A DNA stretch of 24,000 nucleotides from a bacterium (GTDB lineage Bacteria; Patescibacteriota; Minisyncoccia; Phycocordibacterales; UBA6899), in the NCBI GenBank assembly GCA_043742365.1, contig JAYTYM010000065.1, positions 11,909-35,908 on the forward strand, read 5' to 3'. A program made the translations under genes and the position numbers. Positions 3,021 to 24,000 of this stretch are shown piece after piece. Every line of letters begins with the position of its first letter. Positions within the stretch are counted from its first letter, which is position 1. Under the pieces are notes generated by a model, which was given only the letters and a program-made list of their open reading frames with translations, was not told the DNA's origin and searched no databases.

Positions 3021-3057
3021 ATTTATTTCTTAATTACAATTCTTTAGACCTCTCCAG

Positions 3058-3171
3058 TTTACCCTGATACCTACCAAAACAGCATATAGCGGCATTACTT
3101 GCTCACACTAACAAATTACTGACTACTTCACTTTACCCTGATACCTACCAAAACAGCACATAGGGGTATTT
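3058..3171 (-). repeat. Two tandem 74-bp units upstream of tRNA-Lys, each a degenerate copy of the tRNA 5' part
   Basis: 3058-3097 and 3132-3171 share tttaccctgatacctaccaaaacagca(t/c)atag(c/g)gg(c/t)att. Their reverse complements (GCCGCTATATGCTGTTTTGGTAGGTATCAGGG and ACCCCTATGTGCTGTTTTGGTAGGTATCAGGG) align to the tRNA-Lys 5' end GCCCCTATAGCTCAGCTGGTAGAGCAGTAGCC. Confidence 0.55.
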
Positions 3172-9080: not shown

Positions 9081-9300
9081 GGGGAAGCTCCATTACATGG
9101 ACGGTACACCTTTCGTATTTCGCACCACGGAGAGTACTTAAAAATTACAGTACTCGAGAGCCGTAGGCACTCGCATTCTTCAAAGTGGATTACCGCTAAG
9201 AAGAATTGGGTCGCTCGATGTCATGTTTAGTCGAAGACGAAATATATTCAAGGTTTTCGATAGGATATCTCTGCTTAAAGCAGAAGTACCTCTTTCCCAT
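9081..9300. repeat. Family-A module, distal copy at the tRNA-Arg(GCG) locus, interrupted
   Basis: 9090-9122 matches 9367-9399 with 1 mismatch in 33 nt. 9232-9261 matches 9398-9427 with 1 mismatch in 30 nt. The two halves are separated by 109 extra nt. Confidence 0.55.
9123..9231. mobile_element. 109-nt insertion in the apex of hairpin 2 of the distal module (family-B-like sequence)
   Basis: The intact paralog reads cgtatttcgaagacgaaata (9391-9410). The interrupted copy reads cgtatttcg-[109 nt]-cgaagacgaaata, with CG on both sides. The insert carries agagtactt-N8-cagtactcgag, which also occurs at 21052-21079. Confidence 0.5.
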
Positions 9301-9330: not shown

Positions 9331-9466
9331 GGGTGAAGGGCTTCGATTCCTCGATAGGAGTATCTTCCATTACGTGGACGGTACACCTTTCGTATTTCGA
9401 AGACGAAATATACTCAAGGTTTTCGATTCCTATTCAGAAGCCGAGCAGTTGGCTTCTTCTCGGGCA
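9331..9466. repeat. Family-A module, proximal copy at the tRNA-Arg(GCG) locus
   Basis: Minus strand reads TGCCCGA, GAAGAAGCCAACTGCTCGGCTTC hairpin, ATAGGAATCGAAAACCTT, GAGTATATTTCG-tctt-CGAAATACGAAAGG, TGTAC, CCA-CGTAA-TGG, then TCCTATCGAGG (a copy of the tRNA T-stem/acceptor). Confidence 0.6.
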
Positions 9467-11474: not shown

Positions 11475-11494
11475 CATTGGGACAAATTATTTAT

Positions 11495-11603
11495 TTGTCA
11501 CAGTAGAGAGGAGAGAAAGTGCCTCGCGGAACTTTCAGGTGAGATTCGAAAGACTTTTCGATGCCGATTCAGAGAGGCCGAAAAGTACCTGCCGATGTAA
11601 TCG
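11495..11603. repeat. Family-A module, tRNA-Ser copy
   Basis: Plus strand reads GAGAGGAGA, GAAAGTGCCTCGCGGAACTTTC hairpin, AGGTGAGATTCGAAAGAC (revcomp of the T arm), CTTTTCG..CGAAAAG hairpin, TAC, GCCGA-TGTAA-TCGGC, and then direct repeat 2 of the tRNA end. Confidence 0.55.
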
Positions 11604-11604
11604 G

Positions 11605-11683
11605 CGAATCTCACCTCCTCCACATTGGGATAAATTGTTTATATTCGAATGTCACCTCCCCCGCACCGGGACAAAATTTACAG
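11605..11683 (+). repeat. Second and third direct copies of the tRNA-Ser 3' end plus trailer
   Basis: cgaatctcacctcctccGcattgggaCaaattAtttat (11457-) compared with cgaatctcacctcctccAcattgggaTaaattGtttat (11605-). A third, more diverged copy is ttcgaatgtcacctcccccgcaccgggacaaaattt (11644-). Confidence 0.7.
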
Positions 11684-15240: not shown

Positions 15241-15378
15241 GTGGGCGATAGAGGATATTCGACCCCTACTGGGTCAGTACACCTTTGCCATTTTTTCAGA
15301 TTAGGAAATCTTCAAAAATAAGGCAGAAGGTTTTCGAATCCTCTAGCGAAAGCCACGCAGGTGGCTTTCTTCGCCCAC
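15241..15378. repeat. Family-A module, tRNA-Val copy (best preserved)
   Basis: 15241-15256 gtgggcgatagaggat is identical to 15408-15423. Minus strand reads GTGGGCG, GAAAGCCAC-ctgc-GTGGCTTTC, TAGAGGATTCGAAAA, CCTTCTGCC...GGCAAAGG, TGTAC, GACCC-agta-GGGGTC, GAATATCCTCTATCGCCCAC. Confidence 0.7.
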
Positions 15379-20478: not shown

Positions 20479-20525
20479 CAATATGACCGCACAAATGCAA
20501 AGCATTTGTGCGGTTTCATATTGTA
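20479..20525. terminator. Long palindromic hairpin after tRNA-Leu(GAG)
   Basis: caatatgaccgcacaaatgc-aaa-gcatttgtgcggtttcatattg, with a small bulge. The palindrome continues outward into the tRNA 3' end and its inverted copy at 20526-20548. Confidence 0.65.
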
Positions 20526-21121
20526 GCCCAAGAGAGGACTTGAAAGACGGAGGCGGTCTACGATTTCGCTTTGCGAAATTGTCGCCGAGTCGGGGTCGCA
20601 AGTACTTATGAGCGAAGCGAATTAGTAACTTGTGACCAAGTCCTCTACAGGCACTTTCGCGAGAGGACTTGAAAACCTTGGTGCGACCAAATTTTTCTTT
20701 GATGTCCTCATCTTAGAAAAATTGAAGTACTCTTGTGGTGATGTTTTGGCTTTGCAAAACCACCAAGGTGTACCGTCCCCGTAGGGGAAAAGTCCTAACT
20801 TGAAAGACGGAGCCTATGTTTCGCCAGCGACCAAAAACTCTTGAGCGTAGCGATTAGAGATTTGAAGTACTCCTGTGGTGCATGCGAAACCGCGAGCGAC
20901 ATTATTTGCTTATGAGCTAGCGAATTTAGCAAATAAGACGTGCCTGTGGCGCGGGGTCGCAGAAATTTCTGAGCGACCAAAAGTATGCGACCAGAGTGAG
21001 ATAAAATTGGAAGCACTCTTTGTGGTGTGGCGACAAAAAAATATCACTACAAGAGTACTTCCAAATTTCAGTACTCGAGGACACGATGAAGTTTTAGGTC
21101 GCTGTGACAAAGTCCTCCACA
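20526..21121. repeat. Series of three tRNA-Leu(GAG)-linked modules (families A and B), each ending in a copy of the T-arm 3' half
   Basis: AAGTCCT(C/A) occurs at 20462 (the tRNA), 20638, 20790 and 21110. The inverted tRNA end tagcccaagagaggacttgaa is at 20526. The 15-mer acttgaaagacggag is at 20538 and 20798. gcgaccaaa..ttgaagtactcYtgtggtg recurs with a period of about 145 bp. Confidence 0.6.
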
Positions 21122-21145
21122 AAAAAAGACCCGCATCGCGGGTCT
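21120..21145 (-). terminator. Intrinsic terminator of the gam-like gene
   Basis: AGACCCGC-atc-GCGGGTCT. On the minus strand it is followed by TTTTTTT. Confidence 0.7.
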
Positions 21146-21149
21146 ATAA

Positions 21150-21671
21150 CTATTCACTGACTACAGTTACAAATTCAACTGCCGTCTTTGGTTCCACAAA
21201 GAACTTTTCTGTTTGTGTATAGCGAACTCCTTGAATCTGCGGCTTTTCTTTTAATAGCGCTTCTTTGTCGATGGATTCTATGTTGCGGATATATTTCGTC
21301 AGCTCAAGACTCTTGAGAATGTCTAGGATCTTTTCATCGCCGCCACGTCCGGCAGTCACCTTAGGCGGAGTCAGTCTCCACCCGAATATCCCCGAAGAAA
21401 GAGTGACTGTTTTCTTGTCGGCAGCAAGTAATTCTTGCCGATGCTTCACTGCGAATAGTTTGATATTCACTACATGATTTGCAGTTTGTGCCTGAAGTGG
21501 TTTTATCGCCGCATCTGCTTCTTGGCGCAATGTCGCAACTTTTTCTGCAAGTTCGCGTTCGATAGTTTCGGTTGAGCGTACCAGAATACCCACAATGTGT
21601 AGGACGCCATTTGCCTCATCGATGTTTTGTATAGGATGAATAGGGGTCGATTTTTTTGCTCGGCTCATCAT
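21150..21671 (-). CDS. gam: Phage Mu Gam-like host-nuclease inhibitor (DNA-end-binding) protein
   Basis: 173 aa. The segment GIFGWRLTPPKVTAGRGGDEKILDILKSLELTKYIRNIESIDKEALLKEKP parallels Mu Gam GDVSWRVRPPSVSIRGMDAVMETLERLGLQRFIRTKQEINKEAILLEP (recalled from memory). The N-terminal half is coiled-coil. Confidence 0.8.
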   Translation of the reverse strand: MMSRAKKSTPIHPIQNIDEANGVLHIVGILVRSTETIERELAEKVATLRQEADAAIKPLQAQTANHVVNIKLFAVKHRQELLAADKKTVTLSSGIFGWRLTPPKVTAGRGGDEKILDILKSLELTKYIRNIESIDKEALLKEKPQIQGVRYTQTEKFFVEPKTAVEFVTVVSE

Positions 21672-21811
21672 ATGCTCCTCGTCGGAAATTCAAAAGAATA
21701 CTCCATAATGTATATTTGCATACACTAATGATTCTGCCGTGAATTCTCCTTGCACTTTTCACGTTGAAGAGTAGTTTATGTGCAGGCTCTTTTTTATATT
21801 AAGGATGAACA

Positions 21812-22844: not shown

Positions 22845-22873
22845 AACACCACCCACTTTGTTGGGTGTTTTTT
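22845..22873 (+). terminator. Terminator after the ParB-like gene
   Basis: An A-run, then AACACC..GGTGTT / ACCCA..TGGGT hairpin, then TTTTTT. Confidence 0.55.
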
Positions 22874-22909
22874 GTAAGTCGTAAAAACAATCTCTGCTTG
22901 CGAAGTGAG

Positions 22910-22991
22910 TGGGCGTGGGGAGACTCGAACTCCCAACCCTTACGGGATACGCTTCTGAGACGTACGCGTATACCAATTCCGCCACACGCCC
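22910..22991 (-). tRNA. tRNA-Leu (anticodon CAG), long variable arm
   Basis: Reverse complement: acceptor GGGCGTG/CACGCCC, anticodon arm TACGT-CTCAGAA-GCGTA, variable arm TCCCGTAAGGGTT, T arm GGGAGTTCGAGTCTCCC. Confidence 0.92.
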
Positions 22992-22993
22992 AC

Positions 22994-23297
22994 TCACCAC
23001 ACAAACTTTCTATACTCCGCTCCTGAGACGTACGCGACTATATTCTTTTGCAATTCCCCCACACGCCCACTCACCACACAAACTTTCTATACTCCGCTCC
23101 TGAGACGTACGCGACCATATTTATTTGCAGTTCCTCCTCACACTCACTGCACAAGTTCTCTATGATTACGTTTATTAGACGTAAGCGACTATATTCTTTT
23201 GCAATTTCACCACAAACCCAGATGTTCCAATAACATTTATGCTTCGATTCTAAGGCGTACGAGACCTCATTCTTTGGCAGTTCCCCCTTCTAGTCAC
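22994..23297 (-). repeat. Tandem array (4 units, 74-77 bp) of degenerating copies of the tRNA-Leu(CAG) upstream spacer plus 5' two-thirds
   Basis: Units start at 23023, 23100, 23174 and 23250, and each resembles 22955-22993 of the real gene. The 29-nt spacer tcaccacacaaactttctatactccgctc is identical at 22994 and 23071. Similarity decays with distance from the gene. Confidence 0.75.
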
Positions 23298-23712
23298 TTA
23301 CAGTACAAGCTCATCGCGACCCACTTTTTTTGAAATACATGAATTCATTTTATTTATTATTCGTATAAAACGACTTAACACAAGCATATTTAAGTAATTC
23401 ATAAGAAAATTAAATTTATCTAAGCAACATAATTTGCCCAACTGTCCTTTACCTTTTTTCCTACACTCTGTCCTTTATGAAACATCTGGCTGTAATAAAG
23501 AGTGTAGCAAAATGAGTAATGTTTATCTAGCTTTTATCCAAAACAACAAAATTGATTTGATGCAATACCTTTGACAAGACGTCAATCTTTACGATGAGCC
23601 TGCTGGTGCTAGGGTGGATATAGTCAAATTGTTGTTTGACAATCGAACCGAAGAGGGGAATCGCACAGGCGAAACCTTTGTCGGCCTTTTTCACTTTGAA
23701 AAGGACTGTATC

Positions 23713-24000
23713 ATGGACGTTCTCGAAAAACATGCCACGCGGCATACACGCACGCAAGACCTACAGATGACCCTCCTCGAATATCTCGAGGAATGCAAGC
23801 GTAACTCGCTTGCCTATGCATCCGCTTCCGAGCGCATGCTCAAGGCCATCGGTGAACCGAAAACGGTTGATACACGTGATGATCCTCGCCTTTCGCGTTT
23901 GTTCGCGAATAAGGTGATTAAGGTCTATCCCGCTTTTGCCGAGTTCTACGGCATGGAAGACGCCATCGAACAGGTGGTGAGCTACTTCCGTCACTCCGCT
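23713..24000 (+). CDS. prkA: PrkA/YeaG-family serine protein kinase, N-terminal 96 codons (runs off the window)
   Basis: Manual translation gives MDVLEKHATRHTRTQDLQMTLLEYLEECKRNSLAYASASERMLKAIGEPKTVDTRDDPRLSRLFANKVIKVYPAFAEFYGMEDAIEQVVSYFRHSA. This closely parallels E. coli YeaG (..AYANAAERLLMAIGEP..VDT..PRLSRLFSNRVIARYPAFEEFYGMEDAIEQIVSY.., recalled from memory). It is absent from the ORF track because no stop codon lies in the window. Confidence 0.85.
   Translation, partial: MDVLEKHATRHTRTQDLQMTLLEYLEECKRNSLAYASASERMLKAIGEPKTVDTRDDPRLSRLFANKVIKVYPAFAEFYGMEDAIEQVVSYFRHSA

Follow-up and report, generated by a model that had tools for sequence, protein, structure and literature searches.

The question raised by the locus described here is how a tRNA gene came to be preceded by a row of incomplete copies of its own 5' part. 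The DNA under study, referred to as the window, is a stretch of 24,000 nucleotides (nt) of contig JAYTYM010000065.1, and the gene is that for tRNA-Leu(CAG). Upstream of the 5' end of this gene lie four units of 74-77 nt and the remnant of a fifth, arranged head to tail. The gene resides on the minus strand, and thus the units, which have higher plus-strand coordinates, are located upstream of it. With a probability of roughly 0.6, the array arose by local duplication and unequal recombination rather than as a series of mobile-element scars or as a new RNA gene. The best explanation is that duplication at the 5' edge of this gene produced the array as a non-coding by-product.

The components of the locus, in order of their coordinates, are as follows.

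22850..22867, no strand assigned: bidirectional terminator-like hairpin common to tRNA-Leu(CAG) and the convergent ParB_N-like gene (terminator scan, both strands)
22896..22908, minus strand: 3' trailer pairing with the leader (inverted repeat I1; extension of 15 in a Python scan)
22909..22991, minus strand: functional tRNA-Leu(CAG) with no encoded CCA (start at 22909 or 22910 by ARAGORN and Rfam; Rfam tRNA, 56.5 bits)
22992..23022, minus strand: spacer S0, with the leader strand TTTGTGTGGTGAGT and the -10-like box TATAGA at 23009-23014 (from the sequence)
23023..23068, minus strand: unit U1, tRNA positions 1 to ~43 (nhmmer, 55.0 bits; alignment score, 58)
23069..23099, minus strand: spacer S1, identical to S0, with TATAGA at 23086-23091 (repeat family D3, 95% over 77 nt)
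23100..23146, minus strand: unit U2, with a diverged acceptor strand (GTGAGTGTGAGG), the D variant GGAACTGCAAATAAATATGGTCGCG, and an exact anticodon block (nhmmer, 50.8 bits; alignment score, 38)
23147..23173, minus strand: spacer S2, with an ATAGAG box and a leader that has a 4-nt deletion and keeps its complementarity to the trailer
23174..23219, minus strand: unit U3, with the D variant of U1 and a decayed anticodon loop, CTAAT (nhmmer, 43.2 bits; alignment score, 34)
23220..23249, minus strand: spacer S3, decayed (unit alignment)
23250..23296, minus strand: unit U4, of the recognisable units the most decayed (68% to the reference copy; nhmmer, 38.4 bits; alignment score, 24)
~23310..23324, minus strand: candidate remnant of a fifth unit, partly deleted (GTGGGTCGCGATGAG, compare GGTCGCG...CAGGAG), identified by eye with no statistics

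According to Tandem Repeats Finder (TRF), the array extends from 22974 to 23214 with a period of 77, 3.2 copies, 81% matches, and a score of 298. A repeat search yielded a family of six 44-nt members at spacings of 77, 77, 74, and 76 nt, together with a 77-nt pair, 22974-23050 and 23051-23127, of 95% identity (family D3). The CTGAG motif marks unit starts at 23023, 23100, 23174, and 23250. Each unit, when read on the minus strand, is formed by a spacer of ~30 nt followed by tRNA positions 1 to ~43, such that the copy reaches into the 3' strand of the anticodon stem (CTCAG-GAGCGGA versus CTCAG-AAGCGTA). In an alignment of all four units, the variable arm, the T arm, and the 3' acceptor strand were found in none. 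The alignment scores listed above were computed by local alignment to nucleotides 1-45 of the real tRNA. Shuffled controls gave a mean of ~13-14, and the significance by shuffling is P<0.0005 for U1 to U3 and p=0.0025 for U4.

The acceptor strand of U1 and its CGCGTACGTCTCAG block are identical to those of the gene, the block GACGTACGC and CTGAG are exact in both U1 and U2, and the two 31-nt spacers, 22992-23022 and 23069-23099, do not differ from one another. The D region of the units is 9-10 nt longer than that of the gene, GAATTG-CAAAAGAATATAGT-CGCG as compared to GAATTG-GTATA-CGCG, with the insert being A-rich and positioned in the D loop (GAATTGCAAAAGAATATAGTCGCG in U1). U1 and U3 carry this variant D region (gactatattcttttgcaatt) unchanged, U2 and U4 have diverged versions of it, and the variant unit may be written as GGAAYTGCAAA...ATAGYCGCGTACGTCTCAG.

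An earlier note on this DNA had proposed four extra units with these starts and this period, each comprising the upstream spacer and the tRNA 5' part through the anticodon arm. It had likewise described the missing arms and 3' acceptor strand, the exact blocks and shared spacer of the first two units, and a common D region foreign to the real gene. All of these features were recovered in the present analysis. Note that 22955, the start given there, falls in the anticodon loop of the real tRNA-Leu(CAG). The note also held that similarity decays with distance from the gene. The falling alignment scores agree with this, but the pattern of decay is a mosaic with no clean gradient. Indeed, U1 has the D region of U3 and the spacer of U2, as recombination among repeats would give.

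To gather relatives of the locus, genomes were scanned with the N-terminus of PrkA and metagenomes with the real tRNA, and homologues of PrkA were looked up. A protein search with a 96-aa PrkA fragment returned short fragments only, and the three contigs looked up were GC-rich, proteobacterial, and without any tRNA. A search with full-length PrkA returned mostly Burkholderiales (~84-85% identity), the useful loci being only L210, L211, and L215. The gene order L19 / tRNA-Leu(GAG) / ... / tRNA-Leu(CAG) / prkA is common to nine genotypes, which have 0, 1, 1+1, 3, or 4-5 copies, some of them decayed or interrupted by other small repeats.

Window: four units and a remnant
L002 and L210: one unit
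L211: one decayed variant unit and a short copy of positions 1-19, with a tRNA that has a different TATAAT box, leader/trailer pair, and terminator
L065: one unit
L215: one unit that lacks the A-rich insert (GGCGTAACTGGTAGCCGCG) and is interrupted by a palindromic element of ~150 nt
L114: one unit
L191: three units
L174: a barely recognisable unit
L113: no unit

The copy number is thus 4-5, 1, or 1+1 among close relatives and 3 in a deeper lineage. The tRNA-Leu(CAG) sequence is identical in the window, L002, and L210, and the window and L002 share ~76-84% identity at fourfold sites. The nearest relatives of the window are metagenome-assembled genomes (MAGs), and L065 is a syntenic relative labelled Candidatus Lloydbacteria (Patescibacteria / Parcubacteria group). 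The amino-acid identities of L065, L113, and L174 to the window are 81-86% for L19 and 54-66% for RluA and UppS. Judged from these comparisons, the variant unit is old, unstable, and dispensable in related genomes. The sole other contig with exactly the window's neighbouring gene stops inside the tRNA.

The palindromic element of L215 belongs to a family of small insertions (...GGGTCGAGAGTACTTA...TAAGTACTCTCG / ...TTAGTAACTCGTGACC) that sit inside other tRNA-flanking repeats as well. Copies are found at 9131-9158 and 21052-21079 of the window, at ~2060-2200 of L215, and in L118, L131, and L161. One splits the second of the 3' elements that follow tRNA-Arg in the window, and another is that which interrupts the 5' pseudo-unit of L215.

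Several features of the array speak for its origin. The head-to-tail arrangement of the units, their constant period of 74-77 nt, and the lack of anything between them support duplication and recombination. The real gene and the pseudo-unit are preceded by copies of one spacer, as a tandem duplication predicts, and in L002 the corresponding spacers are still recognisably homologous (TAGAAAagttcttgtgggtgagt versus TATAGAaataacttgttgggtgagt). The acceptor strand of the proximal pseudo-unit follows that of the host tRNA, namely GGGCGTG in the window and L002 and GGGCACG in L191, which fits concerted evolution. The decay, large insertion, and loss tolerated in relatives argue against a tight sequence constraint. 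Near-constant period, copy number that differs among close relatives, and mosaic or homogenised units, all of which are looked for in tandem repeats maintained by slippage or unequal recombination, are present. Slippage, one of the causes considered in the earlier note, therefore fits, as does unequal recombination. That note had named variable copy number in relatives, consistent with simple slippage, together with no expression and no second locus for the variant unit, as counting against its reading. Copy number does vary in the relatives, and serial integration is thus not supported by the note's own standard, as far as the searches reach. No second locus was found in 690 kb of related contigs, where a ten-unit profile matched only units and real tRNAs.

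On the basis of this anatomy, the following steps can be proposed. One old tandem duplication would have copied a segment of ~75 nt extending from just upstream of the -10 box, via the leader, to approximately tRNA position 43. Its product would have had the order promoter / pseudo-5' part / (-10 box and leader) / intact gene, and the pseudo-copy would next have gained the A-rich insert in its D loop. Homologous blocks of ~45-77 nt would then have permitted unequal crossing-over, slippage, and gene conversion, with attendant shifts in copy number. Crossovers in the spacer/acceptor block would have homogenised the acceptor strand and left the D variant in all units but the last, with proximal units kept gene-like and distal units decaying. 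In the window genome the array would have grown to four units and a remnant, the two proximal repeats still being 95-100% identical. The units, probably neutral and possibly transcribed, would either be part of the precursor's 5' leader, from which RNase P would remove them, or be situated just upstream of a weak proximal promoter.

Not all observations are accommodated by such a scheme, and those that weigh against it are gathered here. The D-variant unit persists in lineages whose UppS and RluA are only 54-66%, and whose L19 is 81-86%, identical to those of the window, and the CGCGTACGTCTCAG block and a part of the insert, TGCAAA...ATAG, are retained across deep lineages. Neutral DNA should be randomised at such depth, and thus repeated gene conversion from the real gene, exchange of the locus between lineages, or some selection is needed. 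Such conversion, with an invariant real gene as its source, accounts for the blocks identical to the tRNA but leaves the insert unexplained. In L115, L145, L092, and L211, the spacer is unlike the sequence upstream of the pseudo-unit, and in L211 the tRNA is replaced along with a new leader/trailer pair. This replacement or nesting of tRNA cassettes in the four loci indicates that not every 5' piece came from a simple tandem duplication. Finally, GTATAGAAA is kept in the window and L002 a few nucleotides before the leader helix, which hints that the proximal -10 box may be used.

The last point leads to the alternative that survives best, although it is still unlikely, namely that the pseudo-unit is a selected cis element for tRNA-Leu(CAG) expression, acting at either the DNA or the RNA level. 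The signals that bear on it lie in the spacers. The end of the spacer, TTTGTGTGGTGAGT, pairs with the trailer, ACTCACTTCGCAA, and the acceptor helix is thereby lengthened by 13-15 bp. The corresponding inverted repeat, I1, has arms at 22898-22920 and 22982-23004, which are 23 nt long and 83% complementary. The leader of S2 pairs with the trailer as well (inverted repeat I4, 22897-22911 with 23141-23155, 87%). A leader/trailer extension of at least 5 bp occurs in 19 of the 114 tRNA-Leu(CAG) loci analysed. The TATAGA box sits a few nucleotides upstream of the start of the leader helix, and a -10-like box is present in each spacer, TATAGA for U1 and U2 and degraded for U3 and U4.

A TTG -35 element at 16-18 nt from the -10-like box was found in none of the units, such that the -35 and -10 elements at 16-18 bp of a tandem sigma-70 promoter array are lacking, and a promoter scan of the tRNA strand of the array gave no site. 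The unit therefore carries a -10-like box and a leader rather than a full promoter. The description of the units as bearing a promoter, made in the earlier note, stands for the -10-like box and leader strand of each spacer but not for the promoter as a whole. Canonical promoters do occur at other tRNAs of the window, an example being TTGATA-17-TATAGT before tRNA-Leu(GAG). In the relatives a canonical promoter, TTGGAT-18-TAGACT (TTGGCT-16-TAGAAA in L002), is positioned upstream of the outermost unit, and it persists even in L174 and L113, where the unit has decayed or been lost. This arrangement suggests that the units may sit within a long 5' leader. The variant D region was also considered as the site of a sigma-54 or sigma-70 promoter, which was rejected because the spacing is wrong by eye and the promoter scan negative.

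In the DNA version of the cis-element proposal, the A/T-rich insert, located around -37 to -53 relative to the proximal TATAGA, would serve as an UP-like half and the array as tandem weak promoters. In the RNA version, a leader-borne copy of the leader and acceptor strand would compete with the true 5' strand for the single 3' acceptor/trailer strand, thus modulating folding or RNase P processing. The unit has, indeed, persisted in seven or more lineages belonging to a deep clade. TTGCAA or CTGCAA stands 33 nt from the -10-like box in the window, L002, L114, and L191b, the corresponding figure for L065 being 35 nt. In addition, GTATAGAAA is conserved between the window and L002 amid an otherwise diverged spacer, and the -10-like box lies just ahead of the 13-15-bp leader/trailer helix. 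When U1 and the gene are folded together with RNAfold, the pseudo 5' strand pairs with the 3' strand in the minimum-free-energy structure of both the window and L002. Competition of this type is expected with any duplicated strand, however. Folds of single units are weak and dissimilar, and the independent sequences are too few for a covariation test. The missing -35 element and promoter call on the tRNA strand, and the canonical promoter above the outermost unit, which is retained in L174 and L113, argue against the proposal, as do the toleration of a ~150-nt insertion in L215, of decay in L174 and L211, and of loss in L113.

Somewhat less probable again is the notion of a long-lived, selected leader/promoter module of tRNA-Leu(CAG) in a Parcubacteria-type clade that would mimic the tRNA 5' strand, working through its insert as a promoter half or through its RNA as a competitor that tunes maturation, with its tandem amplification acting as a dosage knob. 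The partial copies on both flanks of patescibacterial tRNA genes would then reflect a specific mechanism of tRNA-gene turnover rather than junk.

Improbable, too, and more so, is an origin of the first unit in recombination with incoming DNA, that is, a cassette-like tRNA replacement after which the array grew by unequal recombination. The resident 5' part would have stayed in place after homologous, or homology-facilitated illegitimate, recombination at conserved segments of the tRNA. L211, which is close to the window, fits this description in that it retains the resident leader and positions 1-19 before a complete, differently flanked tRNA. Its replaced tRNA cassette has another, perfectly complementary leader/trailer pair, tatgaactctgt / acagagttcata. 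The pseudo-units of L145, L175, and L115 have acceptor strands that match those of the real tRNAs in other lineages exactly, 5' and 3' pieces occur together at the same gene above expectation (Fisher p=0.04), and the arrangement in L092 is nested. The spacers of the window and L002 are homologous and the acceptor strands identical, however, as duplication in place predicts, and no donor was identified. The links of 5' pieces to 3' pieces or to long leader/trailer helices are weak (p=0.04-0.13).

The nested set of L092 extends over positions 1000-2400 around tRNA-Leu(CAG). It includes a degenerate full-length pseudo-tRNA 1 kb upstream, a copy of positions 1-19 located 45 nt upstream, and a copy of position 27 to the end located 17 nt downstream of the gene. 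A sequence of ~105 nt is repeated downstream of both 3' parts, and a PaaX-like open reading frame (ORF) lies between.

Serial site-specific integration near the anticodon/variable-arm boundary by elements bringing a promoter and a tRNA 5' part, with displacement of earlier 5' parts and later deletion of the cargo, had also been raised in the earlier note and is very improbable. Displacement of a 5' tDNA fragment is known though rare, occurring in 159 of 3919 islands in the Islander set, and tandem islands exist, with 125 cases (PMC4383910). The polarity at the present locus is right in that same-strand 5' pieces lie upstream of, and on the matching side of, an intact tDNA. Phage-like genes (Mu Gam-like and ParB_N-like) are found on the other side of the tRNA, and small att-like direct repeats on the 3' sides of other tRNAs in the window. 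The units are spaced at 74-77 bp with no element between them, however, and two of the spacers are identical, such that four independent deletions ending at the same base would have been needed. Pfam scans revealed no integrase, recombinase, or transposase among the 30 ORFs of the 24-kb window. Neither at least 2 kb of DNA between fragment and tDNA, nor a tyrosine integrase, nor a fragment on another element was observed. Same-strand upstream copies of the conserved core TGGCGGAAYTG are confined to -45 to -144, L092 excepted, where the copy is degenerate and full-length. In 340 kb of upstream sequence from relatives, L092 alone has a far-upstream copy, at 1 kb, with the PaaX-like gene and no integrase between, and no displaced 5' fragment was found beyond the prkA operon in L002 or L065. 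Two scans of the IMG/VR viral collection for the unit gave 0 matches, or 5 chance matches with no tRNA context, and there was no match to it in phage and plasmid collections.

The weakest proposal, in which each unit would be expressed on its own as a 5' tRNA-half-like small RNA, for example a decoy for anticodon nucleases or other tRNA-binding factors, draws on the -10-like box ahead of each unit and on the exact acceptor strand, anticodon-stem 5' strand, and CTCAG loop of U1, U2, and several relatives, but it is most improbable given that the terminator scan detected no terminator or processing signal after the units, that the older units lose the anticodon loop first (CTAAT in U3, CTTAG in U4), and that loss is tolerated in relatives.

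A coding role for the array was also considered and dropped. No convincing ORFs were found in it, only short, mostly non-ATG ones to which the repeats themselves give rise. Among Rfam families, tRNA alone was detected in the array.

The tRNA-Leu(CAG) array is one case of a habit common in these genomes. For the 199 tRNAs of related contigs, 5'-half copies number 19 upstream versus 3 downstream, whereas 3'-half copies number 24 downstream versus 3 upstream. With neighbouring real tRNAs removed, 16 (5') and 18 (3') remain and four genes have both; the Burkholderiales control set held two tRNAs only, and these counts thus stand without an outside baseline. A polarity with 5' pieces upstream and 3' pieces downstream is what results when duplications span the edges of a gene and selection retains those that leave it intact.

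Two sets of repeats near other tRNAs of the window deserve description. There are seven tRNA genes in the window, scattered along its length, and five of them are followed by a conserved structured element, the "3'-end accretion" of the earlier note.

2819-2887: 3' element after tRNA-Lys
9363-9431, with a split copy at 9231-9261 / 9089-9122: 3' element after tRNA-Arg GCG
11476-11642: 3' element after tRNA-Ser
15262-15345: 3' element after tRNA-Val
~20700-20800: 3' element after tRNA-Leu GAG

The element follows many different tRNAs in the relatives and was observed in L108, L113, L114, L124, L135, L065, L142, and L175. Its order is tRNA, terminator hairpin, an inverted copy of the 3' acceptor strand and T arm, and (A)TTCGAA(A/G)ACCTT. 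There follow a variable hairpin, AAGGTGTAC(C/T)G, a GTA-loop hairpin of 5-6 bp, and, in direct orientation, a copy of the final 17-25 nt of the tRNA, the end of the unit lying 122-190 nt past the gene. Covariation in the GTA-loop hairpin is strong, amounting to 27 cells changed on both sides as compared to 7.1 in shuffles (0/500), for sequences that had been pre-chosen by a hairpin scan. There is no Rfam match to the element, which looks like a defined RNA or single-stranded-DNA element rather than a collection of random remnants.

Upstream of tRNA-Lys(UUU) there are two 74-nt tandem units, at 3047-3096 and 3121-3170, that are 86% identical over 50 nt. They begin with a weak likeness to tRNA-Lys positions 1-27 (GCCGCTATATGCTGTTTTGGTAGGTATCAG; p=0.08, not significant alone). 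These repeats may represent a second 5'-side array in the window.

The window itself is ordinary chromosomal DNA of a small-genome, Patescibacteria-like bacterium. Its genes include those for adenylate kinase, RuvA, RuvX, ribosomal proteins S20 and L19, UppS, and a pseudouridine synthase, in addition to PilM/N, a type IV secretion system (T4SS) pilin protein, and a Mur ligase. On the 3' side of tRNA-Leu(CAG) are the terminator and then the end of the ParB_N-like gene, which is adjoined by the Mu Gam-like gene. The segment between tRNA-Leu(GAG) and the ParB_N-like gene (window 20480-21800) differs among the close relatives L002, L210, and L211. The Mu Gam-like gene (21150-21671) is present in the window and L211 and absent from L002, and in L210 an ORF of 222 aa with a faint LAGLIDADG match occupies its position. 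Short repeats lie downstream of tRNA-Leu(GAG) at 20532/20661 and 20722/20862.

On the 5' side, a 721-nt intergenic region separates tRNA-Leu(CAG) from the divergent prkA/yeaH/spoVR operon. The start of prkA is located at 23713-24000 of the window, and the operon, with yeaH encoding a DUF444 protein, extends from 3570 to 8500 in L002. A near-palindromic motif, CGTAAAGATTGACnnnTTGTCAAA, upstream of prkA (window 23570-23593) is kept in all syntenic relatives. PrkA of the Patescibacteria-like lineage is 84-85% identical to that of Burkholderiales over 640 aa, which suggests either horizontal acquisition or extreme conservation. Joint acquisition of a ParB/prkA block with later insertion of the tRNA was entertained and dropped, the ParB_N-like protein of the window being unlike the Burkholderiales ParB encoded beside prkA.

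Partial copies of tRNA genes are usually taken as footprints of integrated elements, and they are almost always 3'-sided. The present locus indicates that such a signature can arise on the 5' side, in tandem, and free of any element, and that it persists and turns over for long periods in reduced genomes. Both island finding and tRNA annotation can be misled by it, fragments may be miscalled, and tandem 77-bp repeats break short-read assemblies. Patescibacteria usually have one gene per tRNA, and the locus bears on how tRNA genes and their leaders evolve in these organisms. If the units were to act as promoter halves or as competing 5' strands, they would provide a simple and previously undescribed means of tuning a single-copy tRNA gene.

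Among known systems, the tyrT locus of Escherichia coli resembles the array in being a tandem array beside a tRNA gene with a partial tRNA copy in every unit. Its distal repeats of 178 bp, present in ~3.1 copies, each end with the last 19 nt of tRNA-Tyr. They are co-transcribed with the tRNA, are the source of rtT RNA, and probably stem from unequal recombination. Unlike the present array, the tyrT repeats are 3'-sided and carry the 3' end, and in this respect they are closer to the 3'-side elements of the window. No Rfam match to rtT was found here. The tandem promoters P1 and P2 of the rrn stable-RNA operons offer a second comparison. If the -10-like boxes of the units were used, several start sites would likewise feed one stable-RNA gene. 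In contrast to P1 and P2, however, the units have no -35 element, their pseudo-tRNA part would become leader, and their number varies among close relatives.

Named sources of tRNA fragments are integration and CRISPR (PMC9897764), and crossover sites centred on the anticodon are common in integrated islands, for which candidates of less than 2 kb were rejected by Islander (PMC4383910). The array shares with islands and prophages the partial tRNA copies in direct orientation on the matching side of an intact gene. It differs from them in having no intervening element or integrase, in the 74-77 bp spacing and identical spacers, and in the presence of the gene's own leader in the units. Finally, tandem duplication with pseudo-tRNA remnants is known from animal mitochondrial genomes, those of snakes being an example (PMC5946542). 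Animal mitogenomes are a different genetic system in which whole genes or control regions are duplicated, rather than a promoter-proximal 5' part being repeated in front of a single retained gene. Yet there, as at tRNA-Leu(CAG), local tandem duplication runs over tRNA genes, the redundant copies decay, and the copy number varies.

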